From the IMG/VR virus record IMGVR_UViG_3300047388_000165, positions 1-56,053 of that record: DNA of 56,053 nt; one strand, written 5' to 3'. Positions 3,743 through 51,547 of the stretch are shown here, piece by piece (within the stretch, counting starts at the first letter, position 1; every line of letters starts with the position of its first letter). Under the pieces are notes generated by a model. The model was not told where the DNA came from. It saw nothing but the letters and a program-made list of their open reading frames with translations, and searched no databases. This DNA comes from a virus (taxonomy: Duplodnaviria; Caudoviricetes). Both the position numbers and the translations under genes were made by a program.

Positions 3743-3934
3743 ATGAGTGCAAAAAATATACCGATTGAGTTCCCTCAAACCTCCACAGCCACCGAGCAGG
3801 GCGATGGCGTGCTGATTCACTGGACGTGTCAACCGCGGTTGACAGGCAAACGTCTCGTGGTGCTCTGCGCCACCGTCGAATCCACGCGCACCGTGAAGCG
3901 CATGACGAAATATCTGCGCGAGGAGGGGCGATGA
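3743..3934 (+). CDS. Hypothetical protein
   Basis: AAAGGACAG at 3731; contains the palindrome (CQPRLT). Confidence 0.65.
   Translation: MSAKNIPIEFPQTSTATEQGDGVLIHWTCQPRLTGKRLVVLCATVESTRTVKRMTKYLREEGR
3827..3844. repeat. Dispersed palindrome TGTCAACCGCGGTTGACA
   Basis: Perfect 18-bp copy. Confidence 0.95.
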
Positions 3935-4401
3935 AAGTGACGCTCAAACGACTCTCTGCGTGCCCGTGCGGGTTCCACGCCCTGAATGACGACATCAAGC
4001 TGGGGACTGAGTATGAGGTCCAAGAGAACAGGCCGAAGCTGACCTTCGACTTCATCTGTGGTAATTGCGGCCACAAACAGAAGCTGATGGGGATATCAGT
4101 GACGCGCGATGGCGGACCTCCTGGATATCTTCCTGAGCTGCTGTTCAGTGACGAGGGCCAGAAGATGATGAAACTCACCGACATCTTGAGCGAAACCCAG
4201 CTCGACGAAGTGGAGCGCATCTTGAACGAGAGTGAGGGTGATCGGATGAAGGCCACGTTGGTGCTCCGGCGATACCTCTCGATGTTCAAAACTGAGCTGG
4301 AAGCCAAAGGCGTGGTCAGCGATTATCTTGCCTACGTCATCGCCTACAAGCAGTGGACTGGTGGCGACAACGGCGACCGCGTGGTCGCATTCAGCGCATG
4401 A
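3931..4401 (+). CDS. Hypothetical protein with CxC/CxxC
   Basis: AGGAGG SD before ATG at 3931; possible second start within. Confidence 0.6.
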   Translation: MKVTLKRLSACPCGFHALNDDIKLGTEYEVQENRPKLTFDFICGNCGHKQKLMGISVTRDGGPPGYLPELLFSDEGQKMMKLTDILSETQLDEVERILNESEGDRMKATLVLRRYLSMFKTELEAKGVVSDYLAYVIAYKQWTGGDNGDRVVAFSA

Positions 4402-6065: not shown

Positions 6066-6418
6066 GCGAGACGTATCCTGAAGCGTTGCAGGTGTTATTG
6101 AACTGCGAAAACGCCACCAACCTGAAAGACCATATCGATCGCACCATCGTGAGCGTTGGCAAAGCGATGGAGATTGACACTCTCGAATATCACTCCGGGA
6201 TGTATGCCCGCAAGGACTTCACCGTCGGCGCATTAGTTGCGTCTGATCCTGAAGTTCGCCGACTGGTCAGTCGAGCGGGAGTGAATATTCGGGACTTCGA
6301 CACGAACATCTCCATAGCGTCACGGGCGATTCAGGAGGAGATGAACAAGCGCAGCCCGATTGGTGAGAAGATCGCCAAAGTCTTGAGGGATACCTGCGCC
6401 AATAGGAGCGTCCGATGA
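6062..6418 (+). CDS. Hypothetical protein within the ubiquitin-like cassette
   Basis: 118 aa, ATGA-coupled on both sides. Confidence 0.7.
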   Translation: MSETYPEALQVLLNCENATNLKDHIDRTIVSVGKAMEIDTLEYHSGMYARKDFTVGALVASDPEVRRLVSRAGVNIRDFDTNISIASRAIQEEMNKRSPIGEKIAKVLRDTCANRSVR

Positions 6419-7395
6419 AATCCACCATCTATATTATCGGGTGCGGTGGTGTGGGTAGTTGGCTGGCGCCGTCGCTGGCCTTGCTCACCTCCCCAAAGCA
6501 AATCGTGCTCATCGACGCGGACATGCTGGAAGAGAAGAATCTCGACCGGCAGTTGTTCAAACCGGAAGACATTGGTCGCTCGAAGGCGGAAGCGCTGGCT
6601 GAGCGATACGGGTGTAATCACCTGCACGCTTGGTTCTCGGAAGGACTGATGGAGTTCCATGAGGACGACTGGCTGATCGTGTGTGTCGATAACCACATGG
6701 CACGCAAGGCGGCACTCTCAGTCTGCGACCGGTATGGCACATTGGCCATCTTCGCGGCCAACGAGACGCACTCCGCTGAGGCATACTTCTATCAACGCGA
6801 GTGGATGAATCAACCACTCGATCCCCGGGTTTACTTCCCTAATATTCTCACCGACAAGTCCAATGACCCGCGCTCGCGGACCATCGGCTGCACGGGAGAG
6901 GCGCAGGTGGAAAACCCCCAGCTAGTAACGAGTAACGCACTGGCGGCATCTTTGGCCGGCCACCTTTTCGCGCTGTGGCATCTCCACGCGCCCACGGTCA
7001 AATCAAAGACAATTCCATTCCTACCATACCGTCTCGTGGCGAACCGAACTCGCCTGGAGACTCACTTAATCAAAGACAAACTGAAAGGACAGACAGATGA
7101 GCGATCCCAACCTACACCCGGAGGAGCAGTCGTGGCCGACGCTGCCAATACTTCCGGACCCACCGAGTCCACCGGAGCCAGTGGACCAGAGCCCACAGCA
7201 GCCAATATTGCCAATAATCCAAATGGAGACAGTGCAGGACGACACACTGGACGGGCTGACTCGAATAACGGACACGTCGGCAGCTCAAGCAGTGCCGAGT
7301 CAACCGCGGTTGACACAGGACGAGACGCCGTCGCCGTCCGAGACACCGCCCCCATCCACGTCGGAGCCAGAAGTGGAGGCGGATATGGCGGCTAA
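6415..7395 (+). CDS. ThiF/E1-family adenylyltransferase with a low-complexity tail ending in GG
   Basis: IIGCGGVGSW, DAD..EEKNLDRQ, CVDN, candidate catalytic Cys in IGCTG. Confidence 0.9.
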   Translation: MKSTIYIIGCGGVGSWLAPSLALLTSPKQIVLIDADMLEEKNLDRQLFKPEDIGRSKAEALAERYGCNHLHAWFSEGLMEFHEDDWLIVCVDNHMARKAALSVCDRYGTLAIFAANETHSAEAYFYQREWMNQPLDPRVYFPNILTDKSNDPRSRTIGCTGEAQVENPQLVTSNALAASLAGHLFALWHLHAPTVKSKTIPFLPYRLVANRTRLETHLIKDKLKGQTDERSQPTPGGAVVADAANTSGPTESTGASGPEPTAANIANNPNGDSAGRHTGRADSNNGHVGSSSSAESTAVDTGRDAVAVRDTAPIHVGARSGGGYGG

Positions 7396-8038
7396 AAAGA
7401 AGGTGGCCATCGCAATGGATGGCGCCATCAAAGTCGTGGAGGTGCCTGAGCCGCTCAAACGCAAGTGCGAGCTGAAGGACGTGTTGCCACAGGGCGTGAT
7501 TCAGTTGCTGGCGTCCGCGCCACACAACGAAACCGTCCGCAACGTGCTGCTCGCGCATTTGAAAGTGCCAGTGCCTGAGGAGCTGAAGAGCTACAAGGAC
7601 ATTCAGGACTGGATCGAGTTCAACATCGAGCCTCCCAAGGCGCTAGCGGCGAAAGGCGGAGTTCCTATACCGGCTTCACGTGCGGAGGTGGTCGCGGTCG
7701 CTATCGCCTTGGATGATAGGGAGCATGGAACGTGTTCTTACTCCCGCGACATGTGGGGGCGGGGAACTGTCAACGTGACGCAACATGACATCGTCACGGC
7801 AGCGGCGGAATCGGATGACTCGGATGAGTTCTGGGGGAGAGTGCGAGATGTAATCTACGAAGAAGGCCCAACCGATCACATCGAGATAGAACCGGTTCCG
7901 AACAGCGCGTCACTCAGTGATTGTGACGTGCATGACAGCGACGGGCTGACTGTGGAGATACAGACGGCGGGCTACCAATCGGTCAAGGACTTCCTTGCCC
8001 GGGTCAATCCCGAGGCTTACGAACGACTCTTTGAGTAA
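7097..8038 (+). CDS. Hypothetical acidic protein of the cassette (alternative start 7385)
   Basis: AAAGGACAG at 7084 before ATG 7097; GGAGG at 7375 before ATG 7385; Pro-rich N-terminus overlaps the E1 gene. Confidence 0.7.
   Translation: MSDPNLHPEEQSWPTLPILPDPPSPPEPVDQSPQQPILPIIQMETVQDDTLDGLTRITDTSAAQAVPSQPRLTQDETPSPSETPPPSTSEPEVEADMAAKKKVAIAMDGAIKVVEVPEPLKRKCELKDVLPQGVIQLLASAPHNETVRNVLLAHLKVPVPEELKSYKDIQDWIEFNIEPPKALAAKGGVPIPASRAEVVAVAIALDDREHGTCSYSRDMWGRGTVNVTQHDIVTAAAESDDSDEFWGRVRDVIYEEGPTDHIEIEPVPNSASLSDCDVHDSDGLTVEIQTAGYQSVKDFLARVNPEAYERLFE
7298..7315. repeat. Dispersed palindrome (exact 16-bp core)
   Basis: AGTCAACCGCGGTTGACA. Confidence 0.95.
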
Positions 8039-8064
8039 ATTAACCAGCAACCAAAGGACAGAAA

Positions 8065-9291
8065 ATGAAAATGAAAGTGAACGGGAATATCGTCGAGGAC
8101 GATGTTTCCATAGAGGGGCTGCTTGAGTGCAAGCTGTCCCATCATATCAAAGAAACCAAGGGCACGGTGATTTACACCGGGCCAAAGATTCCACCGGAAG
8201 TGTGGAATGAAGTGCTCTCGTTCTTCAAGTGGTGCTACACCACCTACAAGAGTGAGTGCCAGGTGAGGCTGTTCGTCAGTCCCACCCAGAACACGTGGCG
8301 AGCGTGGGCGTTCCCACAGGAAGCCAAGACGGGCATGACCGCTCGTGAGATCGACAACGAGGACGCGCGGACTCAACGGGCCGAGCTGAACATGAATCCA
8401 CCGGATTGGATTTACTTCGGCACGGTTCATCATCACTGTGGCGCTGGAGCTTTCCAGTCGGGCACGGATGAGGAGAACGAGAAGAATCAGGACGGGCTGC
8501 ATATCACCGTTGGCAAGATGGATGAGAAGAAGCATGACCTGCACGCGCGGTTCTACCGCAAGGGGCTCAAGTTCACGCCGGACTTGAGCTGGTTCTTCGA
8601 TGTGGAGCCGGCACTGGAACAGGTCAGGACGTGGATGGCTTCATCGCCAGTCACACTCGACCCGAAGATCAATCCCACATTGTTCCTTGGCCACAAGGAC
8701 AAAGACGACCTCGCCAAAAGTCTGATGTGCGAGCCGTCGGAGGTGGAGTTCCCGCAGGCATGGAAAGACAACATCATCGAGATCAGGCCGGTGACGCCGA
8801 CCTATCCCGTGACGCCTTACTTCTCGGCCAGCTCTCCAGCGGGTAGCAATGGGACGACACACGGAGTCACGCACGTTCCGTCGGTTTACAGTCCAGACCA
8901 CGATCCTGTGTGGCAGCGAACGCGAAGGGCATGGAGTGAGATTCTGTTTCACTGCGTTGTGCACGAGATTGCCCCGGAGGATATCGAATCCGCCATCGGC
9001 GACCTTGCGCTCAAGGACTTCGCCCCCAACGTCGTCGTCATGGCCTGTCGTCACCACAAGGTCGACCCGGACGATCTGGAACGGGAGATGCCAACGAACC
9101 TTGCTCAAGCAATAGTGGAGGAGGCGATGTCGCAGGCGCAGGAGCGGCATGAGAGAACTGCTCCCACCCCAAAACAAAACACCAGCACGCCAAGAAGTCA
9201 GGCAAAAAGCGAGGGAAAAAAGGCCGATGGAGAGGCCCCCGCTTCTGGAACCGTTGATGGGGACGACTGGTCCCACCTCTCAGTAACTTAA
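8065..9291 (+). CDS. JAB/MPN (JAMM) metalloisopeptidase, PRTRC protein A-like
   Basis: SEC, GTVHHHC, AFQSGTD (E...HxH...S..D), GLHITVG; AAAGGACAG at 8053. Confidence 0.85.
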   Translation: MKMKVNGNIVEDDVSIEGLLECKLSHHIKETKGTVIYTGPKIPPEVWNEVLSFFKWCYTTYKSECQVRLFVSPTQNTWRAWAFPQEAKTGMTAREIDNEDARTQRAELNMNPPDWIYFGTVHHHCGAGAFQSGTDEENEKNQDGLHITVGKMDEKKHDLHARFYRKGLKFTPDLSWFFDVEPALEQVRTWMASSPVTLDPKINPTLFLGHKDKDDLAKSLMCEPSEVEFPQAWKDNIIEIRPVTPTYPVTPYFSASSPAGSNGTTHGVTHVPSVYSPDHDPVWQRTRRAWSEILFHCVVHEIAPEDIESAIGDLALKDFAPNVVVMACRHHKVDPDDLEREMPTNLAQAIVEEAMSQAQERHERTAPTPKQNTSTPRSQAKSEGKKADGEAPASGTVDGDDWSHLSVT

Positions 9292-13531: not shown

Positions 13532-14353
13532 ATGAGTACCATAGGACAGATAGTTACCACCAGAACCCTCGCCCAGTTAAAACAGATCGTCAGTCGCAAC
13601 CTCAACGCCACACTCGAAGCCGGACAGGCGCTTCAAGAAATCCGGGATCGGGAGCTGTGGAAGGAGGAGGCCGACTCATTCCAGGCGTTCTGCATCGACA
13701 ACTGGGGAGTTACCCGGCAACGGGCTTACCAGTTGATCGGTGCTGCCGTCGTCGTCCAGCAGCTGCCTGCCGAAGTGTCAACCGCGGTTGACAGTGAGCG
13801 GGCAGCGCGGGAGTTGGGAAGGGCGCCTGCGGAAGCCAGGGAATCCATCATCCAGCATGCCAAGGGCGAGAACGGAAAGGTCACGGGACCCGCTGTGGCC
13901 AAGGCAGTTAAGGAGCATGCCGCCGCACTCGCCAAGACGATGCCGGACGGCCCACCTCCGGTTTACGACCGGACTGGGTTTCCCATCCCTCAACCTGCCC
14001 CAGCCATGACCACGTGGCTGCGGGCAGAGGAAGTGCAGACCATGCTCACCGCACTCACACGCATCAAGAGCGTCATCGTCGGCTCCGACGGCGGGAAGGA
14101 CCTGCTGTATGCGGAGATCAATATGTCCACACTCATCGCGGACCTCACCAGCAGTTACAGCGGCCTCAAGGTGGCAATGCCTTACGCCGTGTGCCCGACC
14201 TGCCAAGGCCGGGTGCTGTCACCGTGCGACACGTGCAACGGTCGCGGCATGATTAGCGAGTTCTACTGGAAGCACAAAGTGCCGGATAAGACCAAAGAGA
14301 TTCGAGAGCGCGCTGTCGAAGCTATGCTCGAAAAGAAGAAAGGAAAGAAATGA
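13532..14353 (+). CDS. DUF3102/ParB-HTH-like DNA-binding protein with C-terminal Zn finger
   Basis: AGQALQEIRDRELW...SFQAFCIDNWGVTRQRAYQLI, then VSTAVD (encoded by the palindrome), ERAAREL; CPTCQG..CDTCNG. Confidence 0.75.
   Translation: MSTIGQIVTTRTLAQLKQIVSRNLNATLEAGQALQEIRDRELWKEEADSFQAFCIDNWGVTRQRAYQLIGAAVVVQQLPAEVSTAVDSERAARELGRAPAEARESIIQHAKGENGKVTGPAVAKAVKEHAAALAKTMPDGPPPVYDRTGFPIPQPAPAMTTWLRAEEVQTMLTALTRIKSVIVGSDGGKDLLYAEINMSTLIADLTSSYSGLKVAMPYAVCPTCQGRVLSPCDTCNGRGMISEFYWKHKVPDKTKEIRERAVEAMLEKKKGKK
13776..13793. repeat. Dispersed palindrome inside the HTH gene
   Basis: Perfect 18-bp copy. Confidence 0.95.
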
Positions 14354-14817: not shown

Positions 14818-14998
14818 AACGATGACGTTGGAGGAATTAAACAGAATAGCTCCTCCACATCTAGGGAGGCACGCAAGGTGCGTCAACTGCACATGCAAAA
14901 ACAATATGTATAATTGCAGAAGCAACCGACATATCCCTGAAATCCATGAAGACGCCCTACTCCCCTCCGCAATCGCAATAATGAAAGGAGAAGGATGA
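14807..14998 (+). CDS. Hypothetical protein
   Basis: 63 aa, Cys cluster, coupled to the helicase. Confidence 0.45.
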   Translation: MKIKTMTLEELNRIAPPHLGRHARCVNCTCKNNMYNCRSNRHIPEIHEDALLPSAIAIMKGEG

Positions 14999-16755
14999 TC
15001 CGTGCATACCAAGATGAATGCGTCACCGCCTTCGCCACCGAGTTCGAGCGAGGCACCACGGCGACGCTCGGGGTTCTTGCGACTGGTCTTGGAAAAACCA
15101 CCATTGCCAGCGAATTTATCCGACGCATCCAGCCAGCCCGAAGTTTATTCCTGGCACACCGGGACACGCTTATTTATCAGGCGCGGGATACGATAGAGCG
15201 CATTGCGAAAGTCAAATGCGGCATCGAGATGGCAGAGCTGAAGGCTGACTATGGCTTCTTCTCCAAGGAACAGGTCGTCATCGGAACGGTGCAAACTCAG
15301 TACTCGGGAAACTCTGGAGCTGGCCGCATGGCTCTGTTTCGACCTACTGATTTTGATTATCTGTTTCTCGATGAAGCACATCACTGGGTGGCTCCCGCTT
15401 ACCTCAAAGTGGTCCGCTACTTTCAGCAGAATCCTCGACTCAAGATTGTCGGGTTCACCGCCACCGCTGATCGGTTTGACAAAGAGTCGCTCGGCCAGTT
15501 GTTCCAGACGACGGCTTACAAGATGGACATTCTGGCCGGCATCAATGAGGGCTGGCTTGTTCCGATCTACCAGCAATACGTCCCGGTTCAAGGACTCGAT
15601 TATTCCCACATCAAAACCACCGCTGGCGACCTCAACCTCGGACAGCTGTCGGCAGTCCTGGAAGAGGAGGAGACGGTTCAGAGGATGATCCAGCCCACGA
15701 TTGAGGCAGCATGGAATCTCCCCGACCGGAGGCTGGACTACGCACCGGTCGAAGAATGGGGAAATGTTCTGGGCAAGAAAGGACGCCCCAAGAGAACGCT
15801 CGTGTTCTGCTCCAGCATCAAACAGGCGCAGCGATTCGCCGAGGTGCTCAACCGGGTGCGATCTGGAATGGCCTGCGCCATCTGGGATAAGGTTTCCCGC
15901 GAAGAGCGGAAGATCATTCTCGGCGACTTCAAGACCGGCAAACTCCAAATCCTCGTCAACGTCGGCATCTGTGGCGAGGGCTTCGACAACCCGGCAGTGG
16001 AGGTTCTGGTCATGGGACGCGCGACCAAGAGCCGCAGCCTCTACACTCAGTTCGGTGGACGTGGGCTCAGGCCGGCAGACAGCGTGGCCCACAAACTCAA
16101 CGACTGCGCGACCGCTGAGGAGCGCTGCCAGCTCATCGCCAGCTCGGAGAAGCCGCGCTGCATCATTCTCGACTTCGTGGGCAATGCGGGCACCCACAAA
16201 CTCATCACTGCTGCCGATATTCTCGGTGGCAAAATCAGCTCCAAAGGCATCGAGAAGGCCAAGAAGAAGATGCTCAAGACGACCGATCCCATGAACGTCA
16301 TGGACGTGCTGGAGCACTCCGAGGAAGAGGTTCGCAAGAATATGGAGCGAGCCAAGAAACTGGCGGAAGAGCGGCGCATCAAGCTGGTCGCCCGCTCTCA
16401 CTTCACCAAGGTCGACATCGACCCCTTCGACGCGCTGGACTTGAAGCCAACCGCACCCAGATCACTCGACGCCGGGAAGAAGCTCTCCGAGAAACAAGTG
16501 GCGCTCATGTCCCGCTTTGGAATCCAGGCGTCACGGTATCCCTACACTCAGGCCAAGCAACTGTTCATCGAACTGTGCAAGCGGCTCAATGACCGGAAGG
16601 CCACTCCACCTCAGGTCGCTGTGTTAAGGCGAGCAGGATACGAGAACGCAGCCGAACTTCCGCAAAAGGAAGCCAAGCGACTCATCGACAACCTTCGTAA
16701 CAACGGCTGGAAACGGCCACCAGAACCATCAAAAATTGCGGACGAATTATTCTAA
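14995..16755 (+). CDS. SF2 DEAD/DEAH-box helicase
   Basis: ATGLGKT, DEAHH, TAT, EGFD, QFGGRGLR. Confidence 0.95.
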   Translation: MIRAYQDECVTAFATEFERGTTATLGVLATGLGKTTIASEFIRRIQPARSLFLAHRDTLIYQARDTIERIAKVKCGIEMAELKADYGFFSKEQVVIGTVQTQYSGNSGAGRMALFRPTDFDYLFLDEAHHWVAPAYLKVVRYFQQNPRLKIVGFTATADRFDKESLGQLFQTTAYKMDILAGINEGWLVPIYQQYVPVQGLDYSHIKTTAGDLNLGQLSAVLEEEETVQRMIQPTIEAAWNLPDRRLDYAPVEEWGNVLGKKGRPKRTLVFCSSIKQAQRFAEVLNRVRSGMACAIWDKVSREERKIILGDFKTGKLQILVNVGICGEGFDNPAVEVLVMGRATKSRSLYTQFGGRGLRPADSVAHKLNDCATAEERCQLIASSEKPRCIILDFVGNAGTHKLITAADILGGKISSKGIEKAKKKMLKTTDPMNVMDVLEHSEEEVRKNMERAKKLAEERRIKLVARSHFTKVDIDPFDALDLKPTAPRSLDAGKKLSEKQVALMSRFGIQASRYPYTQAKQLFIELCKRLNDRKATPPQVAVLRRAGYENAAELPQKEAKRLIDNLRNNGWKRPPEPSKIADELF

Positions 16756-16758
16756 CCT

Positions 16759-17103
16759 ATGAGCAAACCAAAAGGACCAAAGGCTCGGTTCACGAGCAAA
16801 GAACAGATCATCGCGCAGATCGACAAGTTCACCAGCAAGCGGGACAAAAAGCACACTCAGGCCGCACAGCTGCTGCACGACTGCAAAGAGCTGCGGCGCA
16901 TGATGGCGAACCCTGAATGCACCAGCGGTGCGTCGTTCAGGGTAGAGGCAGACGCCAAATACGCACGCGCCCAAAGGATCGGAAAACAGATCAAACGACT
17001 GGAGGAGAAAGTGCTCCCAATGTGGAAGCACAAACTCTCAGAGTTCCAAACCGATGTGATCCCCGGGTTCCTGCCGGACAACAGCGTGGAGGCACCCGAA
17101 TGA
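16759..17103 (+). CDS. Hypothetical basic protein
   Basis: 114 aa between helicase and primase. Confidence 0.7.
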   Translation: MSKPKGPKARFTSKEQIIAQIDKFTSKRDKKHTQAAQLLHDCKELRRMMANPECTSGASFRVEADAKYARAQRIGKQIKRLEEKVLPMWKHKLSEFQTDVIPGFLPDNSVEAPE

Positions 17104-17918
17104 GCGAAATGCAACGGGTGGATCGCGCCCATAAATGCCCCATCTGCGATCACGACACCTGGTGTTTGCTGGGACGCAGCGTCGTCATATGCATGCGGCA
17201 GACATCATCAAAGCCCAAGAACTTCAAAGGTGGAGAAGTCGGATACCTTCACGACTATCCAAACGGCGACCGGAAACCCAAATACGAACCAACACCACGG
17301 GAAAAACCACCGGCCATCAATGCCCGCAAAGTGCTTTGGGATTGGAAGCGTGCTTACCCGAACGACAAACTCGCCATGCTGGCTGACAACTTGGGCGTAA
17401 CCATCCGCTCACTGGAAGAGATGGAGTGCCAGGTGGCTGGAGGCTATGTGAGCACGTGGGCGTTCCCTATGAAAGATGGCTACGGCAATTACATCGGCAT
17501 CCGGCTCCGCAACCTCGCTGCCCAGAAGTGGGCGGTGACAGGCTCTCAGGCGGGAATCTTCGTGCCGAAGGTAACTCCTCAAAAACGAATGCTCGTGGTG
17601 GAAGGGCCGACTGATTGCGCTGCCGGACTGACACTGGGCATCTACACTGTTGGTCGTCCGTCCTGCTCAGGTGGAGTGACTCACATTGTCGACCACGTTC
17701 GCAAACAGAAGATCATCCGTGAGGTGGTCATCGCTGCCGACAACGACACTCCTGGAATCAAAGGAGCGACTGACTTGCAGAAGTGGCTGCCGGTTCCAAG
17801 CTGCGTGATGCTGCTGCCCACGAAGGACCTTCGAGAATTTATCAAGTTCGGTGATAAGTCCACCATCGACTCGATGATTGAACAAACGGTGTGGACTCAA
17901 CCAAAGGAGAACAAATGA
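17100..17918 (+). CDS. DNA primase (Zn finger + TOPRIM)
   Basis: CPICDHDTWC; VVEGPTD; ADND..G; KDLR. Confidence 0.85.
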   Translation: MSEMQRVDRAHKCPICDHDTWCLLGRSVVICMRQTSSKPKNFKGGEVGYLHDYPNGDRKPKYEPTPREKPPAINARKVLWDWKRAYPNDKLAMLADNLGVTIRSLEEMECQVAGGYVSTWAFPMKDGYGNYIGIRLRNLAAQKWAVTGSQAGIFVPKVTPQKRMLVVEGPTDCAAGLTLGIYTVGRPSCSGGVTHIVDHVRKQKIIREVVIAADNDTPGIKGATDLQKWLPVPSCVMLLPTKDLREFIKFGDKSTIDSMIEQTVWTQPKENK

Positions 17919-17986: not shown

Positions 17987-20900
17987 CTACTTCGACGGCG
18001 CAGGTGACTGCTTCGTCAACTCATCGATCAGCAACGTTTGAAAATTACTGAACGTCTGCTGCCGTTCCACCCGTGCCCGGGAGTACAGGTCCAACTCCTT
18101 GTCGGTCAAATCCGACAGGAAGTACTTCTCAGCGACCTTGCTCCCGGTGAACGGGCGGGCATTCCAGAGCTGCATGGCTTTGTAAATCTGGTTGTCCGTC
18201 CGGGTCTGCCGCAACTTCTCCAGTGCCTGCTGAAATCCCTTCTTGTCTTCTGACATCGCCGCGCGGCGCAGGTCGTTATATCCCAGTTCGTCGGTCTGAA
18301 TCTGTTGCCAACCCGTGCTCTTGTTGAGCCCGTTGGTCTTCACAAACTCGTCTGCCTTCTTGAAAATCTGGTTGTTCGCGGTCGGCGCGGGCTCCGTCTT
18401 CACGCCCAGCGACGCCATCGCCTGACGCTGCACGGTTCCTGGTGCCGGCGGCTGGCCAATACCCATCGCTGCCAATCCCGCCTGTCCCACCTTGCCCAAC
18501 GAAATCGGAACCGGAACCATTGCCTTCCCCATTTCCTTCGCCATGCCGCCGGTGCTGGTGATCTTGCGGTGGTCGGGCGTCTCTCCGGTGGCAAAGATCA
18601 TCGCTGCCCGACCGTAGGGACCCAGCTTGTTCTCACCGATCTGGTGGACCGCGTCGTAAACGGTGGGCTTGTTCCCACTCAGTCGAATCACATCGTGCGT
18701 CACCTCGTTGAAGAGCGACAGCGGGCTCATGAAGAATCCTCCACTCTTGCCGGTCACGTCGGGAATCCAGGCGTCCCACTTGTGTCCCTCTTCCTCGTTC
18801 TGCCATGTGGGCTTGCGTCGCGTGATGAGATTGATCGCCTGAGTCACCACGAACATGGCGGCGAGTCCGCGGGCAATGCCACGGCCAGCGGTGCCCAGCA
18901 GCGGCACGTCGCGTCGTCCGGCAAGATACGAGAGCCCGGTCAAACGGCCCGGCAGCGCTGACTCCTTCTTGATGAGCCCTTCCACCCACTGCGGCGCCAG
19001 CCCGAACATGCGAAAGATATCCTGAAAGGTCTGGTTCTTAATCCAGCCCTGACGGCCAATGCTGCCCATGTAGTTGTTGGTGTCGCGGGCGACATCGTCC
19101 ACCAGCCTCCGATAATCCACCTTTGGGTTCTCGCGGTTCATCCGCTCAAACTCCTTCACGGCAGTTTCCAGCATCAGCCCACGGGTGAACTTGTCGAAGA
19201 GCCACTTGTTGTACTTTCCAATGGGACCGCTCTCCACTTTGTAGATAGCGTCAGCGATTCGGCCAGCGTTCAGGCCGCGCTTTAGGAACATATCCGCGAT
19301 CTGGCGACGGGTGATCTGCGTCTTGCCCGCTGGCAGGTTCACGTCGATTAGTGTGTTGGCCCACTCCGCATCTTCCGGACGGACCAGTCCCTTGGCGACC
19401 GCGCCAGGAATGTCCTCCGGACGATACTCGAGGATGCTCAGGCCACCTTTGTAGCCGCCTTTGCCGATGCCGTTGATGGACCAGTCGTATGCTTTGAGCC
19501 GTCCAAGGTGGAAGGTGTCGAGGAACAGGATGGTGTGCTTCAGCTTCTGGCTGAACTGCATCGCGCGGCGCGTGGCGGGAACGTCACGGATGATGCTGCT
19601 GCCCACCAGGGCTTTGATGATGTCCACCGATCCCTTGTGAACGGCCATGTATTTGTTGCCGAAGTCCACCAGATCATACTCGGGCGATGGGCCGGTGTAG
19701 CTGCCATCCGGACGGCGCACGGGCTCAACCACCATCGGCTTGTCACTGTGCGGGTCCTTCAAAGTCTTCAGACTCTTCTCCCAGAGGCGGGTTTCAATCT
19801 GTCGCATGCCTTGACGCACACGGTGAGCCACCAGCGCCGCACCATCCATGTTGAATGGCAGGTAGTTCCCGGCAGCGATGGCCTCGTAGTAGTTGCTGAA
19901 CGTGGCCGGCTTGCGGAAGTTGCGTCCCAGGATGCGCGGTCCTTCCATGAAATTGATCCGGTCACCGTCAAACCACTGCTCGTCGTAACGACCGGGAAGG
20001 TAGTTCTCAGCCCGCTTCACTCGCATGCCCATGTCGCGTTCGGTGCGGTGTTGGGCCTCCATCTCCACGACCATCTTCGCCGCAGTGTCTTGCAGCTCGG
20101 GCTCGTTCCAGTGCTCCTCGGCATACTTCAGCTGCTCGCGCATGTCGCCCACAGCCTTGAGTCGGGCGCGGGCGGCGCGGCGGTCGAGCATACCCTGCAT
20201 GCCACCACCCTTGGACTCGATGATGTTCTTGGACTTCTGTTCTGCCGTGTCGAGTTGCCGGCCAAATCGCTCCAGCTGATCGAAAGCCTTCTTGTTGTAT
20301 TTGATGGTGCCGGTGTGCCAGTCGATCTCACCGTCATCCACCATTTGCAGGACAGTTTCACGCTTCAGCTTGGCAAGCATCTGACCGCCACGGGCTTTGT
20401 CGATGGGATCGGCTGAAGAGAACAGTCCCTCGATGTTCCGGTAGATCGGGTCCTGCTTCATCTTCTCCAGCACGACCGGCTTCATCTCATCCGGCACCGG
20501 ATAATCGATGGTGTAAGCCCCAGCCTGAACCACTGTGGGCGCGGCCTTCAGAACTTCCTTGTTGCCATTGGGCATCTTCTTGTCGGCAGTCACGAACCGG
20601 ATGGCTTTGTCCGCCTTATCGCCAGCGACCGAGTATTGGGTGTCGACCGCATCCCGGGTGGCAGACAGCTGCTGCTCGGAGGCTTTGCGTTTCACGTAGG
20701 CCGTGAGCGCGCTCACTGCATCCGCCGTGTCCTCTTTCAATTCCTCAACTCGGCGCAGGGCTGCCGGGCCGCCATGCTTCTTGAACAGGTCCAGCTGGCC
20801 TTTGTTGCCCTCACCTTTGGCCACGACCTTTTTCTCCGCCTTCAGTGACTCACCAGCGGGCTTAGACGGCGATTCCGATTCTACGTCACGCTCTGGGAAA

Positions 20901-23900
20901 AGCTCACGGTTGATGTAGTCGGAAACCTCTTTGTCCGCAGCTTCCTGTCTTGCGGCCTCGTCTTCCGCCAAAGCATCAGACCCTTCGTTTGGCTCCCTTT
21001 CCACTCTGGCACCTTCGATTGGCTTATTACTTCCGGATACACGATAACGCTCCTTTGGTGTGGGGCTATCCACGATGCTTTGCATCAACTGCTTCGACCG
21101 ACTCTCAGTGATGATGTTGTGCTCTTTCTCGATTTCCGCTTCCAGTTTGGCGCGGTCTTCGTTTGACAGCATCTCCACCGGCTGCTTGGCGATGGCGGCG
21201 GTGGGTTCGGGAGCTATTCCCGGCTTGGCTCCAGCGACTTCGGTAGGCGGACGGTCCCGGATGGTGCTGAGGTCGCGGGCGCCACTGCGCTTCTCGCGCT
21301 CGGCTTGAGCGAGGAGGATGCGTCGAGATGCTGCATCCGCTTCAGCAGTGCTGGGACGGCTTTGTGCCATGGTCCTTTGTACGAAGTCGCTGCGGGTGTC
21401 GCTTTGGTTGTAGTTTTCATAGAGTTGATCGAGCACCTGGCCCAGCGCTTCACCTTCGCTCATTCCCCGGTTCTGTGCCCGGACAATCCGCATGAGCTTC
21501 CGCAGTCCGCTCACCATCGATCGGCTGGCGGTGGCGGCAGTGCGTTCAATCCGGCGTGCCCATTGCAGAGCATCGGAGGGCGGCGTGTCACCAAAGAAAT
21601 TGTGAAAGTCCTTCAGCTCTGCCTCAGTGGGCCGGGGCAGGTCATACTTCTCACCCGGGAACGAGAACGGCGTGGCGAGACGCATACCCTTCTGGGGCAC
21701 ATCCGCCTCACGAACTCCTGGCGCATCCAGTGAGGCTACATCACCACCTTGCGGAATGTCGCTATAACCGGTGCCATGTTCACGGGCGAGGTCAGCCGCC
21801 TCTTTGTGGAACATCTCCTGAAAGTCAGCCATCGAGTTGAACTTCTGGTGGAAGTTCTGTTTTGGCTCACGCAGCAGGATCGAATAAAACGGCTCGTAAT
21901 TCGGAGTGATCTCTTCGATTGGTCGGCTGGGACGTTCCTTGCCGGCCAGAGCAGGGTCCACCATGCGAACGGTACCATCACCGGGGTAGGTCGAAACCAA
22001 ATGGACGGTGCCATCCCGCTTGTCGAAGAGCGCGGTCAGCCGGCGCGTCATGGAAACCGGCAGGGAACTGCCGCCCACGCGAGCCTCTGACGTGAGAATC
22101 TTCTTCAGTTCAGCCGGGTTCTTCGCTTCGCTGGGCGTGATCGCGCGGTAGGGTAGTTGAGCATCTTCGCTCTGAGGCAAATCCTGAAACCAAATATCCT
22201 GCGCGAACACCTTCTGTTCTGGTGGCGTCTCTTTTGCCCCCAGTTGTGCGGCGCTTGCGGCCTGCACATCTTCACCACCGGGCACGCCCTTCTTAGTAAC
22301 CGCCGCGAAAAATTCTTCCTGCTCTCCAGCTTTGCCTTTCTTCCGCAGAGCTGCCGGACCTTCCGGTTCACCAGACCGTTCGACAGCAGCATACGGGCTG
22401 AAACCTTTGATGATCTTGTCCCCCTTTGGGAGCATGCCGTGTGTCCACTTTCCGTTCTTGTCGACGGTCCCAATCGAATCAATCTTGGACCCACCGTACT
22501 TCTCAATCATCGCCTTGCCACCAGCGCTCACATCGTACTGCTTGCCAGCATAGGCCGCGCGGTAGATGGAGCCATCAGGTCGGCGGACGAGAACAACGCG
22601 CTCACCAGGGGCGGTAGGAGGAAGCGGGGATTCCAAATCATCGATGTTGTGGGTGGGCACACCTCCACTCTCCAAGGGCTTCGCACCCTTGGTAAGGTCA
22701 GGAGGCAATTTGAATGCGTTCGGCGTGCCGCTGCCTTCCACTGATCGCACCGCATGATCGCCCAGCCGGTCGGCGGGAATGTCAACGAACTCCATCTTCG
22801 GCCCCATGCGGGAAGCGTAGGTCTTGTCACTGCTCCAGTAGGCACCCCCCTCACCACCGTCATGGCCACGATAAAGCCGGACCATGCCTTCGGCGGGCTC
22901 ATCTTCCTTCCGCACCGAGAACGGCTGGTTGCCAGCACCGGCTCCAACAGTGGCACCGATCGCATCCTTCGCGGCTTCGATATTGTCGCGCACTTTGTCG
23001 AGGATGGACTTCTGGTGGGCACTCAACTCCGAGTCCTTCAATCCCCGGATTTTGCTGACGATGTTGGAAAGATGATCCAGTGCCTGAGCGGTCCAGCGTT
23101 CATGCAGAGCCATGCCGACGAAATCGTCGCGCGTCATCCCCATCGCTCGCTCCATGCGATTGCGGATTGCCTCAAATCCCAACTGTGCAGGTGTGAAATT
23201 GTCCGGGTTGTGACCCTTCAGATACTGGCGCTTCAGAATGCTCTGCTCGAACGGAGACATCGAGTTCCAGAATGGCTCGGCATCCTCTGGGTCGGTCTTG
23301 AGGTGGATGTCCTCGTGATCGAACTTCGACTTCACCGCCGCGGCCTTTTCCTTTGGCGACATTCCCTTCAGGTCGTTGTCCACGAACTTGGCGAACTCCT
23401 GGGGGTCCACGATGATCTGCCCGTTCTCGTGGTCGGCCATCATAATTCGGCCATCCGGCAGTTTCCCAAACACCGACTTACCTTCCTCGCCCATGTGGGG
23501 CTCGAGCAATTTGGAGTGCTCAGGACTCAGTGAAACTTGAGGCTGTGGGGCATTGGCCGCCACCGCTTGTTGCTGCAACAGATCATTCTGACCGATCGCC
23601 GCACGCACTTCTGGCGGTGGAGCGCCTTCCGGACCCGGCACTTTGGCGCGTGGAGCTGATTCTTTGAATGCGGAATGAGCGAGCAGGGAGCCCATCCCAA
23701 TGTTGGCAGTAAGCGACGTGTAGGCTTTGGCGATCTCATCCGGAGTCTTGGCCTCGCTGATGGCCTTCAGGGAGTCCGGGATCGCCATGCCCATCTGGGC
23801 ACCGTAATACGCCTGCACGGGTTTGAACTCAGCAAATGGCAGTGTGGCCACTCCACCGGGCGTGGTAAATCCTTCGATGGTTTGGGCCAATCCCTCGCCA

Positions 23901-24373
23901 ATACCAGCTACCGCTCTCTCTGTGGGAGTGGCACCCTGCATCTCTTCAGGTGTCAACCGCGGTAGACTCAGCATGGGGACGCCTGGCTCGACAGCCTTCA
24001 GGTCCATGCCTTCCGCGCCCTTGCCTTTCTGATCTTCGGTGACTGGAACATCTGCTGCGCCAGCCCGCTTCAATGCAGTGAAAAGCTGGGCAGCCGCCGG
24101 CTCGATCACCTTTTCGCTGACGAACTTCAGTGCTCCCGACACGCCCGGAACTGCGCCACCCTGCCGCACGATGTCATAATCAGGGTTTTGCGACGGAGGA
24201 AGTCCGGGGATTTCCGAGAAGTTTTCCGGTGTGGCGCCCTGACTGACGGCAATCTTGTAGCGATCGTAGGGACTCAGCTGGACCTGCGAGAGATCAACTT
24301 CATCGACAGCCGGAGGGGTGAACTTCGGCTGTGACTCATCAACCTCATCAACTGCCGGTGGCAAGAATGCCAT
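17987..24373 (-). CDS. Giant internal virion/ejection (polyvalent-type) protein, 2128 aa
   Basis: Last gene of the tail operon; HEDIH motif; LYRG..YWS ART-like segment; helical C-terminal region. Confidence 0.8.
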   Translation of the reverse strand: MAFLPPAVDEVDESQPKFTPPAVDEVDLSQVQLSPYDRYKIAVSQGATPENFSEIPGLPPSQNPDYDIVRQGGAVPGVSGALKFVSEKVIEPAAAQLFTALKRAGAADVPVTEDQKGKGAEGMDLKAVEPGVPMLSLPRLTPEEMQGATPTERAVAGIGEGLAQTIEGFTTPGGVATLPFAEFKPVQAYYGAQMGMAIPDSLKAISEAKTPDEIAKAYTSLTANIGMGSLLAHSAFKESAPRAKVPGPEGAPPPEVRAAIGQNDLLQQQAVAANAPQPQVSLSPEHSKLLEPHMGEEGKSVFGKLPDGRIMMADHENGQIIVDPQEFAKFVDNDLKGMSPKEKAAAVKSKFDHEDIHLKTDPEDAEPFWNSMSPFEQSILKRQYLKGHNPDNFTPAQLGFEAIRNRMERAMGMTRDDFVGMALHERWTAQALDHLSNIVSKIRGLKDSELSAHQKSILDKVRDNIEAAKDAIGATVGAGAGNQPFSVRKEDEPAEGMVRLYRGHDGGEGGAYWSSDKTYASRMGPKMEFVDIPADRLGDHAVRSVEGSGTPNAFKLPPDLTKGAKPLESGGVPTHNIDDLESPLPPTAPGERVVLVRRPDGSIYRAAYAGKQYDVSAGGKAMIEKYGGSKIDSIGTVDKNGKWTHGMLPKGDKIIKGFSPYAAVERSGEPEGPAALRKKGKAGEQEEFFAAVTKKGVPGGEDVQAASAAQLGAKETPPEQKVFAQDIWFQDLPQSEDAQLPYRAITPSEAKNPAELKKILTSEARVGGSSLPVSMTRRLTALFDKRDGTVHLVSTYPGDGTVRMVDPALAGKERPSRPIEEITPNYEPFYSILLREPKQNFHQKFNSMADFQEMFHKEAADLAREHGTGYSDIPQGGDVASLDAPGVREADVPQKGMRLATPFSFPGEKYDLPRPTEAELKDFHNFFGDTPPSDALQWARRIERTAATASRSMVSGLRKLMRIVRAQNRGMSEGEALGQVLDQLYENYNQSDTRSDFVQRTMAQSRPSTAEADAASRRILLAQAEREKRSGARDLSTIRDRPPTEVAGAKPGIAPEPTAAIAKQPVEMLSNEDRAKLEAEIEKEHNIITESRSKQLMQSIVDSPTPKERYRVSGSNKPIEGARVEREPNEGSDALAEDEAARQEAADKEVSDYINRELFPERDVESESPSKPAGESLKAEKKVVAKGEGNKGQLDLFKKHGGPAALRRVEELKEDTADAVSALTAYVKRKASEQQLSATRDAVDTQYSVAGDKADKAIRFVTADKKMPNGNKEVLKAAPTVVQAGAYTIDYPVPDEMKPVVLEKMKQDPIYRNIEGLFSSADPIDKARGGQMLAKLKRETVLQMVDDGEIDWHTGTIKYNKKAFDQLERFGRQLDTAEQKSKNIIESKGGGMQGMLDRRAARARLKAVGDMREQLKYAEEHWNEPELQDTAAKMVVEMEAQHRTERDMGMRVKRAENYLPGRYDEQWFDGDRINFMEGPRILGRNFRKPATFSNYYEAIAAGNYLPFNMDGAALVAHRVRQGMRQIETRLWEKSLKTLKDPHSDKPMVVEPVRRPDGSYTGPSPEYDLVDFGNKYMAVHKGSVDIIKALVGSSIIRDVPATRRAMQFSQKLKHTILFLDTFHLGRLKAYDWSINGIGKGGYKGGLSILEYRPEDIPGAVAKGLVRPEDAEWANTLIDVNLPAGKTQITRRQIADMFLKRGLNAGRIADAIYKVESGPIGKYNKWLFDKFTRGLMLETAVKEFERMNRENPKVDYRRLVDDVARDTNNYMGSIGRQGWIKNQTFQDIFRMFGLAPQWVEGLIKKESALPGRLTGLSYLAGRRDVPLLGTAGRGIARGLAAMFVVTQAINLITRRKPTWQNEEEGHKWDAWIPDVTGKSGGFFMSPLSLFNEVTHDVIRLSGNKPTVYDAVHQIGENKLGPYGRAAMIFATGETPDHRKITSTGGMAKEMGKAMVPVPISLGKVGQAGLAAMGIGQPPAPGTVQRQAMASLGVKTEPAPTANNQIFKKADEFVKTNGLNKSTGWQQIQTDELGYNDLRRAAMSEDKKGFQQALEKLRQTRTDNQIYKAMQLWNARPFTGSKVAEKYFLSDLTDKELDLYSRARVERQQTFSNFQTLLIDELTKQSPAPSK
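23951..23968. repeat. Dispersed palindrome, variant with one core mismatch
   Basis: TGTCAACCGCGGTAGACT. Confidence 0.85.
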
Positions 24374-24374
24374 A

Positions 24375-25256
24375 TCATTTTACCTTTTCCCAACTGGACT
24401 CGTCGTTCGGGTCGCCTCCCAAATACTTCAGTCCGCCCTTGTAAACAACCCCAATCTTGTAACCACCCTCAGCCTTACGCTGCTTCTTGGTGTCAACCGC
24501 GGTTGACTTGTTCTTCTCCTGCTGGCGCTTCTTCAGGATGGTTTCAATGTCATCTCCAGAACCCGTCTTCCCCCTGAAGATGGGCTTTTGACCTGGGATT
24601 TGAATGACGTGCCCCACGTCGTTGCCTTCCGGGTCTGATACGGGTAAGGCAGTCGGAGCATTGGTAAGCGTCTGAGGAATCGTCGCATATTTTTCCCATC
24701 GGGTTGGACTGACCTGCACCAGAGATTCAGGGGAGTTCGGAATGGCGAACGTGTTGCCGGGTTTGAAATCCCCCGGCAGCGCCGCCAGCCGGCCCAGCTC
24801 AGTGCCGGTCATGTAGGGCGACATATACTTGAGCGCGGCCTGCGTGGGTGTGAGTCCCTCACCACCCTGCTCTTTGGGAAGCACGGCTTTCTGAAACGCC
24901 TGGTTCGCGGTGAACTTCTTCGATGCTTCCTCAGTCTTCGCTTGGAATTGCTTCTTGGCCAGATCAAGGTCCTGAGTTTGTAACCCGATCTGCTGCTGAC
25001 GGTATTGCTGCTCGATGGCGTTCTTCTGCTGCTCCATCTGATGCTCATAATCGAGCTGTTGTTTCTTCGCCTCGTTGGCGGCAGCAATTTCCTGAGAGCG
25101 TTGCTGCATCTCAATGGACGACTGCGCCGCTTCCTGCGACATCTTCTCGCGCTGGATTTCCGCGCTGAGTTCAGCCCGCGATGCCTCGCCCGCGAGCGCC
25201 CCGTAACCTTGGGCGGCGGAAGGATTGAGCCACGGCGGGATTGGATAATTCGCCAT
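24375..25256 (-). CDS. Internal virion/ejection protein
   Basis: Gln-rich coiled coil; C-terminal YLGGDPNDESSWEKVK; position in operon. Confidence 0.7.
   Translation of the reverse strand: MANYPIPPWLNPSAAQGYGALAGEASRAELSAEIQREKMSQEAAQSSIEMQQRSQEIAAANEAKKQQLDYEHQMEQQKNAIEQQYRQQQIGLQTQDLDLAKKQFQAKTEEASKKFTANQAFQKAVLPKEQGGEGLTPTQAALKYMSPYMTGTELGRLAALPGDFKPGNTFAIPNSPESLVQVSPTRWEKYATIPQTLTNAPTALPVSDPEGNDVGHVIQIPGQKPIFRGKTGSGDDIETILKKRQQEKNKSTAVDTKKQRKAEGGYKIGVVYKGGLKYLGGDPNDESSWEKVK
24491..24508. repeat. Dispersed palindrome (exact 16-bp core)
   Basis: TGTCAACCGCGGTTGACT. Confidence 0.95.
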
Positions 25257-40032: not shown

Positions 40033-40061
40033 ACTTAAACTCACATTCAATAAAATGTCAA
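40033..40061 (-). promoter_or_regulatory. Putative sRNA promoter
   Basis: TTGACA-17 bp-TTAAGT overlapping the scaffold stop codon. Confidence 0.55.
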
Positions 40062-46857: not shown

Positions 46858-47580
46858 TCAAAGAGTGTAACCCGCCTCCGCAGCATCGCGGAAAAACATT
46901 TGCGCGGTCGCTATGGATAGTTGCTCAAGGTTCTGCTCCTGCATGTTGATGGCCTTTTTCAATATCTCCTCCGGAACGGTGATAATATCGCAACCGGTTT
47001 CGTTGGCCTCGTAGATGTTCAACGGCTCGCGCACGCTGGCCCAAAGCAGCTCGGTGTTGGGACGGTCGCCGAACTTCATCTTATCGACTGCATTGAACAT
47101 GAACTCCCGAGCGTGCAATCCGGTATCAGCCACCCTTCCGGCGAATATCGATATCACGGACGGCACATTGCGATGGATCGCCTTCAAGGACTCGGAGACC
47201 TGCCACAATCCCAGGACAGCAGTGACATTGACACAGACTCCGCATTCGCCCAGCTCCTTGATTAAATCGTAAGTAGGATTCCCGTTGGTGAACACCACTG
47301 GAATTTTAACGAACACGTTGTTGCCCCATTTGCTGATCTTCAATGCCTGCCTCAGCATCTCCGACGGCTCATCCGAGAACACCTCGAAGGATATTGGCTT
47401 GCGATCGACCACCTCCAGAACCTCCTTGGCAAAGCGCTCGTAATCGGTCACGCCCGCACGCCGCATCAACGTGGGATTGGTGGTGAACCCTTTTATCAAA
47501 GGGTCTTCGTTGAGCCTGATGATCGACTTCAAATCAGCCCCGTCAGCGTAAATCTTTACTTTGAGTTCGGATAATTTCAT
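46858..47580 (-). CDS. tal: Transaldolase
   Basis: YADGA, GFTTNPTL, ISFEV, VFVKIP (Schiff-base Lys), NVT, FAGR, LWAS.RE. Confidence 0.9.
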   Translation of the reverse strand: MKLSELKVKIYADGADLKSIIRLNEDPLIKGFTTNPTLMRRAGVTDYERFAKEVLEVVDRKPISFEVFSDEPSEMLRQALKISKWGNNVFVKIPVVFTNGNPTYDLIKELGECGVCVNVTAVLGLWQVSESLKAIHRNVPSVISIFAGRVADTGLHAREFMFNAVDKMKFGDRPNTELLWASVREPLNIYEANETGCDIITVPEEILKKAINMQEQNLEQLSIATAQMFFRDAAEAGYTL

Positions 47581-48245: not shown

Positions 48246-48496
48246 GGTTGTGAGCACTTGTGTCTGAGGAGTTGCAGGTCGGCGTCGTGGAGGTAGACGT
48301 GGGTGGCGGGAGGATATCCAACCGGAGCCGGCCCATCCATCAACTCCCGAAGGTTGGTGAGATTGTTGATCGCTGCGACGTTCATTGCCTGGTCAACGGT
48401 TGGGTTTATCACACACCCCGTCGCGTCCAGTTGACCAACCTGCGAGCGCAAGTCGTCTACGCGATAATCAATCCACGCTTTCGCTTGTTCGTTCAT
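48242..48496 (-). CDS. Hypothetical protein
   Basis: 84 aa, coupled. Confidence 0.55.
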   Translation of the reverse strand: MNEQAKAWIDYRVDDLRSQVGQLDATGCVINPTVDQAMNVAAINNLTNLRELMDGPAPVGYPPATHVYLHDADLQLLRHKCSQP

Positions 48497-49182: not shown

Positions 49183-49183
49183 A

Positions 49184-51481: not shown

Positions 51482-51547
51482 AGTGAGTTTGGTTATCCCT
51501 GATTTTTCGCTTGCTGTCAACATCGCTCTGTATCATAGTCGAAACAC

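Follow-up and report, generated by a model that had tools for sequence, protein, structure and literature searches.

The virus record IMGVR_UViG_3300047388_000165 of IMG/VR, analyzed here over its full 56,053 bp (hereafter the window) and rated 100% complete, carries at 13532–14353 on the plus strand a gene whose translation, a protein of 273 amino acids, combines a ParB-type helix-turn-helix (HTH) domain with a zinc-ribbon domain. Genes for a Rad52/Mgm101-like annealing protein, a PD-(D/E)XK exonuclease and a DUF7694 protein lie upstream, and two partner genes lie downstream on the same strand: an SF2 helicase featuring ResIII and Helicase_C domains (14995–16755) and a Toprim primase-like gene (16917–17918), both assigned with Pfam and PHROGs. 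Within the 13532–14353 gene, positions 13776–13793 form a perfect 18-bp palindrome, TGTCAACCGCGGTTGACA, which is read G-TG TCA ACC GCG GTT GAC A-GT and thus encodes V82 S83 T84 A85 V86 D87 S88. A sequence-only reading of this DNA had pointed to this palindrome directly after the HTH, which our analysis confirms, and had proposed the protein as the binder of its own in-gene site.

The structure model of the protein, built on 40 relatives, reached a mean pLDDT of 93.7 and begins directly with a helical DNA-binding domain (aa 1–139, 13532–13948, plus strand) with a predicted ParB/Spo0J/KorB-like fold. Using VIA-align, residues 5–139 matched Spo0J (1vz0_A) with a Z-score of 8.8 and an rmsd of 3.0 over 107 aligned residues, followed by ParB–parS (6s6h_B, Z 7.7) and KorB (8qa8_A, Z 6.7; 1r71_A, Z 6.5), while the Foldseek rows for the domain include ParB, Noc, KorB and SopB domains at E-values of 0.13–1.6. 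Because of these matches to Spo0J, ParB and KorB, the model supports describing the domain as ParB-HTH-like, at the level of the fold only and with middling scores; a sequence-profile search against the PDB returned no ParB match for the protein. The predicted HTH occupies aa 50–76 (13679–13759, plus strand), with helices at 50–58 and 62–76 in the secondary structure of the model and a recognition helix reading TRQRAYQLI..., and it coincides with the WG..R.R..QLI block conserved in the alignment of 40 sequences. The HTH-like stretch F50–P79, FQAFCIDNWGVTRQRAYQLIGAAVVVQQLP, ends three residues ahead of the palindrome codons, which begin six residues past the second, recognition helix of the model.

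The earlier label of this segment, "DUF3102/ParB-HTH-like", thus stands for its ParB half and falls for the other. DUF3102 (PF11300, gathering score 24.4 bits) gave no Pfam match for the protein at E-values up to 1, nor for any of the 40 aligned relatives at E-values up to 0.01, and DUF3102 proteins appear among its weak structural neighbors (ranks 13, 15 and 40). Two absences that had been noted hold: the CTPase domain ParB_N (PF02195) has no Pfam match in the protein at E-values up to 1, and a six-frame search of the whole 56,053-bp record with CbiA (PF01656) and AAA_31 (PF13614), two models that both matched in 14 of 14 control genomes, found no ParA-type ATPase. Neither Pfam nor PHROGs matched the protein to Phage_rep_O or a similar family. 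The weak Pfam and NCBIfam matches are to zinc-finger models and, below threshold, to the Borrelia PF49 "replication/partitioning" family; PHROGs gave no match at all for the protein, and three of the 40 relatives weakly matched a Q-like antiterminator family.

The C-terminal domain (aa 140–273, 13949–14350, plus strand) was delineated from two alignments as a helical hairpin, a zinc ribbon and a terminal helix, and is the constant part of the family. Modeled alone it reached a pLDDT of 91.7, yet searches with the whole model and with the isolated domain found no specific fold match, only generic helical-hairpin matches with Z-scores up to 7.6. The zinc ribbon (14192–14251, plus strand), already recognized from the sequence alone, is present as CxxCxG(x5)CxxCxGxG, that is C221-x2-C224-x-G ... 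C232-x2-C235-x-G-x-G; its four cysteines are invariant in the 40 sequences and its similarity to Pfam DnaJ_CXXCXGXG (PF00684) is weak (12.7 bits, E-value 0.16). The linker and the start of this domain (13949–14100, about residues 99–179 of the family profile) carry the motif D-x-T-G-x-P-I-P ... W-x-R-x-x-E-V-Q, and in a profile search of solved structures these residues weakly matched CdiA-CT tRNase PDB entries (E-values 0.005–0.013), with zinc-finger proteins also matching weakly.

The palindrome is strongly over-represented in the window, with eight matches at up to three mismatches against 0.02 expected, a number reached by none of 100 shuffles. Four copies are perfect (3827, 13776, 28572 and 41023), three have one mismatch (7298, 24491 and 50758) and one has two (23951). 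To place them, we used a gene map based on conservation in three related phages of about 56 kb (G001, G002 and G003), which were examined whole alongside the window (G000). All eight copies fall inside coding regions, except that the copy at 3827–3844 sits at the uncertain 5' edge of a conserved ORF (3826–4401). The copy at 7298–7315 encodes STAVD in the C-terminal tail of a ThiF-like ORF (6415–7395); five others lie in minus-strand ORFs, at aa 135 of a 2128-residue ORF in frame SLPRLT (23951–23968), at aa 250 of a 293-residue ORF (24375–25256) in frame STAVD (24491–24508), at aa 880 of a 913-residue ORF (28488–31229) in frame CQPRLT (28572–28589), at aa 114 of a 440-residue ORF (40058–41380) in frame STAVD (41023–41040) and at aa 250 of a 259-residue ORF (50744–51523) in frame STAVD (50758–50775). 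Two frames are hence used, S-T-A-V-D by six copies (3827 included) and (C/S)(Q/L)PRLT by two, the third frame containing a stop codon. A ninth copy, intergenic at 621–639, is a variant of 19 bp that has an additional base at its centre (TGTCAACCG-C-CGGTTGACA).

Two conventional roles for these sites were examined and set aside. The palindrome ends in TTGACA, as a sigma-70 promoter might, but the flanks contain no -10-like element at a suitable spacing and the variant of G001 loses the hexamer; a terminator is disfavored by the lack of a T-run after the sites. About 150 nt from the 19-bp variant lies the most A+T-rich stretch of the genome (419–480; 75% A+T over 60 nt at 419), which is intergenic and contains two direct repeats TTATGTAATCA; the region formed by 419–480 and 621–639 could be a control region or the true origin. 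The copies at 23951 and 24491 flank the start of the 2128-residue ORF (17987–24373, minus strand), which has no Pfam match and shows 50–64% identity in G001–G003; a similar pair is separated by 540 bp in G002 and by 64 bp in G001.

Comparison of the related genomes ties the site to the protein within the clade of the window, as had been proposed. G002 carries a palindrome of the window's type, with seven perfect 14-bp cores and three near copies, six of these 10 positions being orthologous to those of the window (among them 23951, 24491, 28572, 41023 and 50758). G001 has no copy of this type; it carries instead TCCACCGCGGTGGA (TCCACC...GGTGGA), as five perfect and four near copies, and a single copy of the former type, decayed and altered at its centre, persists at the place orthologous to 28572. 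Five of 10 positions in G001 are orthologous to those of the window when this decayed copy is counted, 24491 and 50758 included. The copy at the S-T-A-V-D codons of the homologous gene is retained in G001, in G002 and in the partial contig L083. The window and G002, with the same site, have recognition helices reading TRQRAYQLI and SKQRAYQLI, respectively, versus SRSRAHQLI in G001, so that two substitutions, of Q65 by S and of Y68 by H, accompany the switch of the G001 sites. In the in-gene copy, the positions altered in the G001 site, numbers 3 and 12 of the 14-mer, fall on the wobble bases of the Ser codon and the Val codon. Since this is one event, the concerted change of site and recognition helix is only suggestive of a tie between protein and site.

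Two relatives show the same pairing with other N-terminal domains. G003 retains the C-terminal domain behind a different N-terminal domain that weakly matches DUF3102 (21.1 bits, E-value 3.9e-4); it lacks the palindrome of the window, and AATACGCAAC[C/G]GTTGCGTATT occurs five times in it, once at aa 116 of its own family gene. G014, a 56.7-kb phage whose family protein has a winged-helix-like N-terminal domain, carries eight copies of TCCGGAAWTTCCGGA against 0.12 expected, one of which lies in the family gene 17 residues past the HTH. For the three site types, the chance of at least one copy falling in the family gene is 0.11, 0.07 and 0.13. None of the site positions in G003 or G014 is orthologous to those of the window's clade; copies were therefore gained separately in each lineage.

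Could another phage protein read the dispersed palindrome, the in-gene copy being just one more target, for example a regulatory roadblock? The candidates are a 95-residue GerE/LuxR-type protein (55134–55421, minus strand) and, less likely, a 60-residue Cro-like HTH_3 protein (52060–52242). Dimers of the GerE type bind palindromes of about 18–20 bp, the GerE gene is present in G000–G002 and absent from G003, whose palindrome differs, and its recognition-helix region is altered in G001 (V to I, R to K). Yet no GerE homologue occurs in five unrelated genomes of the family in which the family gene has its own long palindrome, and such a binder leaves unexplained why G003 and G014, with swapped N-terminal domains, have their own dispersed palindromes with a copy in the family gene. 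The HTH_3 recognition region, for its part, is identical in G001 and G002 despite their different sites. We consider this reading improbable and regard the 273-residue protein itself as the best candidate binder.

The same comparisons bear on whether the palindromes act as nucleic-acid structures: hairpins in RNA that serve processing or control translation, or cruciforms in DNA that serve recombination. Whichever strand is transcribed, a perfect palindrome folds into an identical hairpin, pairing is preserved in the G001 switch (A:T to C:G), and in two genomes with high copy numbers described below (G011 and G012) the centres are variable and sometimes asymmetric, like hairpin loops. However, the symmetry continues through the centre, which a hairpin loop does not need, no T-run follows the sites, and the link to the type of N-terminal domain goes unexplained. 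Moreover, single-arm variants (TCTACC) are left uncompensated on the other arm in two of the eight G000 copies and three of the nine G001 copies, and such variants fit protein half-sites better than a hairpin. A purely structural role is accordingly very improbable.

Relatives of the 273-residue protein form a very large family, with 8591 representative clusters at E-values up to 1e-3 and 170 at E-values up to 1e-30; most are full-length matches of 240–290 residues and the close ones are named only "hypothetical protein". A tblastn search against 50,697 GenBank phage records gave no match, a metagenome scan added one new partial relative (L083) and a duplicate of G001, and a genome scan with a smaller alignment added three prophage-like loci. 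Across the family, N-terminal domains vary (ParB-type HTH, DUF3102-like, weak ParB_N, winged helix) while the C-terminal domain, the helicase and the primase are constant; the weak ParB_N matches, all below cut-off, occur in the distant members L047 (E-value 2.8e-5), L058 and L041.

We surveyed palindromes in 52 non-redundant loci, comprising viral and genome contigs, after dropping 12 duplicate or truncated ones (L018, L019, L022, L054, L057, L061, L064, L068 and L082–L085), with same-size windows tiled over the same loci as controls. Taking the longest perfect in-gene palindrome, arms of at least 8 (at least 16 bp) were found in 24 of the 52 family genes versus 38 of 829 control windows and arms of at least 9 in 18/52 versus 22/829; family genes were also enriched at arms of at least 7 (Fisher p 4e-11). 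This comparison supersedes a weak test of near-palindromes recurring within the locus (12 of 57 genes versus 80 of 951 control windows, Fisher p 0.0036), in which loci are partly redundant and partner copies inflate the controls.

According to the sequence-only reading, homologues should each carry a different palindrome at this codon position, dispersed in their own genome. The first part is borne out for 12 of the 27 sequences with an N-terminal domain of the window's type, in which a palindrome lies at window residues 77–85. These 12 palindromes have nine different cores, use each of the three codon phases and specify peptides with no relation to one another (NVKHALQ, KSPIGDS, VLSALNS and MSTIVDN, for example); the palindrome is thus not a by-product of a conserved peptide, and is selected as DNA at a fixed place just past the recognition helix. 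The second part holds for some genomes only. Dispersed palindrome families occur in seven of the 19 genomes examined (G000–G003, G011, G012 and G014), whereas the in-gene palindrome is the sole genomic copy in six (G004, G005, G007, G008, G010 and G013); G006 has one extra near copy, and G009 has two copies, both within the family gene.

The highest copy numbers were found in G012, a 57.8-kb phage (L112–L114) with about 32 copies of CTCGGA-NN-TCCGAG, and in G011, a 40.9-kb contig (L109–L111) with about 15 copies of CGGGGA-WW-TCCCCG. Each has one copy in its family gene, centres that vary and flanks that often prolong the dyad; these repeats may be the same phenomenon with more copies, or else a repeat of the hairpin type. 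Two distant members, L017 (8766, 9062) and L026 (1204, 1494), have an in-gene near-palindrome at aa 75–76 and a second copy 60–69 nt upstream of the gene start.

The genomic context of the family gene is also conserved, and does not support the view of a minimal self-contained system: the gene belongs to a module with the SF2 helicase and the Toprim primase. Of 38 other loci, 24 have an SF2 helicase of 538–583 residues as one of the two ORFs that follow the family gene, which it often abuts; in a tblastn search of 27 sequences, 26 had a helicase orthologue and 25 a primase orthologue, downstream and on the same strand. The family and helicase genes overlap in G002. Upstream of the family gene, the 38 other loci often have RecT and an exonuclease, or an AAA_24 gene.

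The window also carries, 4–7 kb upstream of the family gene, a ThiF-family (E1-like) gene (6415–7395, Pfam E-value 4.4e-18) followed by an ORF with a weak JAB/MPN match (8065–9291, E-value 0.0032). Both are conserved in G001–G003, and 6415–9291 is a ubiquitin-like conjugation cassette in a phage; its weak NCBIfam matches, which include PRTRC_ThiF and a 6A-MBL cap2_3 model, are all far below their cut-offs. The presence of this cassette on the same arm had suggested a PRTRC-like unit together with the 273-residue protein, a link also evoked by PRTRC_ThiF ranking among the NCBIfam matches (E-value 7.6e-13) and by the palindrome copy in the ThiF tail. The proposal is largely refuted. PRTRC_ThiF (TIGR03736) scores 48.3 bits against a cut-off of 144.75, with the generic NF006395 slightly higher and TIGR02356 comparable; no PRTRC ParB or A–F model matched in the 19 proteins scanned at E-values up to 0.01, there is no ParB_N, and no ThiF was found among the 148 neighbor proteins of the 38 other family loci. 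We regard a PRTRC-like unit as hardly credible.

The dispersed copies are more evenly spaced than chance. To assess evenness, the coefficient of variation (CV) of inter-copy gaps was compared with that of random points, and values ranged from G003 (CV 0.12, P below 0.001) through G014 (CV 0.38, P 0.006), G002 (CV 0.47, P 0.014) and G000 (CV 0.54, P 0.07) to G001 (CV 0.62, P 0.13). When the three independent site types were combined (G000, G003 and G014), none of 20,000 simulations was as even. The trend was kept when weak or variant copies were added (P 0.009 for six copies in G003 and P 0.09 for nine in G000), and the high-copy genomes gave P 0.006 for G012 and P 0.15 for G011.

We tentatively favor, as a reading that is quite possible while falling somewhat short of probable, a role of the 273-residue protein as a sequence-specific palindrome binder and the DNA-targeting subunit of the phage helicase–primase replication module. 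ParB-family DNA-binding domains read 13–16-bp palindromes as dimers. A dimer of the protein would likewise read the two half-sites (TGTCAACC / GGTTGACA) via its ParB-type HTH domain, and its zinc-ribbon domain would link it, once on the DNA, to the SF2 helicase and Toprim primase transcribed with it, so that unwinding and priming would begin at the palindromes, acting as origins or loading sites. With one copy of the site in the codons just past the recognition helix, at least one target would be inherited together with the determinant of specificity, and the in-gene copy would hold the two together during exchange of the module. In this phage group the site would have multiplied to 8–10 evenly spaced copies, located in gene segments able to tolerate the encoded peptide.

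Several observations weigh against this role. The fold matches of the N-terminal domain are middling for a helical domain (Z 6.5–8.8), no Foldseek match has an E-value below 0.03, and the top VIA-align row is the Raf1 alpha domain (Z 9.3), which is not a DNA binder. The in-gene site is a single dyad with no iteron array and no adjoining A+T-rich element, its flanks being at or below the A+T content of the genome, and no A+T-rich tract emerges in the mean profile around in-gene palindromes over 25 loci. Eight to 10 origins in 56 kb would be unusual, and the roughly 32 copies of G012 very unusual. SF2 helicases are not the usual replicative helicases, and a DUF1376 gene that may be a separate initiator lies upstream in three loci. 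The GerE/LuxR-type protein also co-varies with the site in the four-genome comparison, and the geometry of L017 and L026, an operator plus an intragenic operator, suggests autoregulation by looping.

Some of these points fit a protein that binds the palindromes without any direct replication role, as a genome-wide organizer, silencer or tether comparable to KorB, Noc or ParB, for which the in-gene copy would serve autoregulation or linkage. The ParB/KorB/Noc fold of the DNA-binding domain, the even spacing, copy numbers of about 15 and 32, the upstream and internal copies in L017 and L026 and the missing A+T-rich element all agree with it. So does the dispersal of 16–18-bp palindromes, a pattern shared with KorB–OB, Noc–NBS and ParB–parS, as does the weak similarity to Borrelia PF49 (NCBIfam E-value 0.005, and a precomputed PF01672 assignment on 7 of 57 close relatives). 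On the other hand, the protein has no ParB CTPase domain for clamping and spreading and the record no ParA, a site found once per genome in six of 19 genomes is ill-suited to a genome-wide organizer, and the near-universal place of the gene upstream of the helicase and primase is left unexplained, as is the constancy of the C-terminal domain with them. We therefore hold an organizer without replication role to be unlikely, if a serious contender, and keep the targeting of the helicase–primase module as the preferred reading.

The closest parallel is the lambda O protein, whose origin lies inside gene O and has inverted repeats bound by O dimers (PMC5043065). The self-referential layout is consequently not new in kind. 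An origin inside a replication gene is also found in SPP1, where oriL lies inside gene 38, which encodes G38P. The likeness to O and ori-lambda extends to a two-part logic, in which the N-terminal part reads DNA and so sets the specificity and the C-terminal part contacts the replication machinery (a role proposed here for the zinc-ribbon domain), to sites, here candidate ones, that lie within the gene of their own reader, a layout seen in the window and in the palindrome-bearing family genes (24/52 versus 38/829 controls), and to a gene directly upstream of its replication partners. The differences are a ParB-type HTH fold without Phage_rep_O match, one dyad and no A+T-rich tract where lambda has four iterons and a 40-bp A+T-rich region, an SF2 helicase and Toprim primase as partners in place of P/DnaB, and the multiplication of the site to 8–10 evenly spaced copies in the clade.

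ParB/Spo0J–parS, Noc–NBS and KorB–OB share with the present system a similar DNA-binding fold and dispersed palindromes of 13–18 bp in the TGT...ACA style, and a parS site is reportedly located inside the spo0J gene, a statement for which our literature searches found no confirming passage. They differ in that the present protein has a zinc-ribbon C-terminal domain and neither CTPase domain nor ParA partner, and resides in a helicase–primase module rather than a par operon. The stoperators of mycobacteriophages of the L5 type are likewise tens of sites for one phage protein across its own genome, but they are asymmetric and oriented, lie mostly between genes, are bound by the immunity repressor rather than by a protein of a replication module, and are not known to occur in the gene of their binder. 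As for PRTRC systems, the likeness is a ThiF-family gene on the same arm as a ParB-HTH-like protein, while the curated models are not matched and the gene sets are unlinked in other genomes.

Origins of herpes simplex virus are palindromic and present in several copies per genome. The origin-binding protein UL9 of this virus is itself an SF2 helicase, and the resemblance is a functional analogy without any claim of homology: an SF2 helicase directed to sequence-specific origin sites. In UL9 the site reader and the helicase are one polypeptide, whereas here they would be two adjacent genes. A bolder generalization, which we consider doubtful and less likely than the targeting role itself, is that this large phage family constitutes a portable "specificity cassette", with a swappable DNA-reading domain, its own palindrome in the codons past the recognition helix and a constant zinc-ribbon adaptor for an SF2 helicase–primase. 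Spread of the target to evenly spaced in-gene copies, as in several lineages, would then equip the phage with numerous programmed origins or sites for helicase loading, as a bacterial-virus counterpart of UL9 in split form, with the evolution of the site channeled through positions that are synonymous in the in-gene copy.

Literature searches on DUF3102 function, on phage ParB-like proteins with dispersed palindromes and on origin binders with an in-gene palindrome, covering articles apart from their supplements, returned no description of this family; three papers mention DUF3102, none of them addressing its function. The location of an origin or partition site inside the gene of its binder was already known from lambda O, and is said to apply to parS in spo0J as well. 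The new elements are a very large unnamed phage family with this architecture, a lineage-specific palindrome at a fixed place in the codons past the recognition helix, and evenly spaced in-gene copies in several lineages. If the targeting role is correct, a function can be named for a very large family of "hypothetical proteins" in a common helicase–primase module, and the gene of each phage directly reveals its likely origin or loading site. Swapped domains with their matched palindromes form a natural series, which provides a data set for the DNA-recognition code of ParB-type domains. More broadly, a binding site that overlaps the codons of its binder can constrain the evolution of both, and the evenly spaced in-gene copies raise the question of how small phage genomes organize replication or genome-wide binding.

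Additional observations concern the carriers of the family and other parts of these genomes. Family members (L086, L087 and L088) were found in large contigs of a Pyrinomonadaceae metagenome-assembled genome (MAG; 231 kb), Chthoniobacter flavus (269 kb) and a Planctomycetota MAG, and the viral record G018 is classed as a provirus; some carriers are therefore integrated prophages of soil bacteria. Among indexed sequencing runs, the single one containing the window in full bears the label soil metagenome and may be its source. At L006 10768–13434, the helicase orthologue of G002 has 888 residues instead of 586, owing to an insertion after the DE(A/C) motif that starts with Cys, ends with HN-C and looks like an intein. 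The window has a long homopolymer C run, the 10-mer CCCCCCCCCC being counted eight times with overlaps included and the 12-mer five times. Finally, a transaldolase-like gene (Pfam E-value 3e-38), a weak glycosyltransferase match and a methyltransferase-domain gene lie among the late genes at 46858–49488 (minus strand), and are possible auxiliary metabolic or DNA/cell-surface modification genes.

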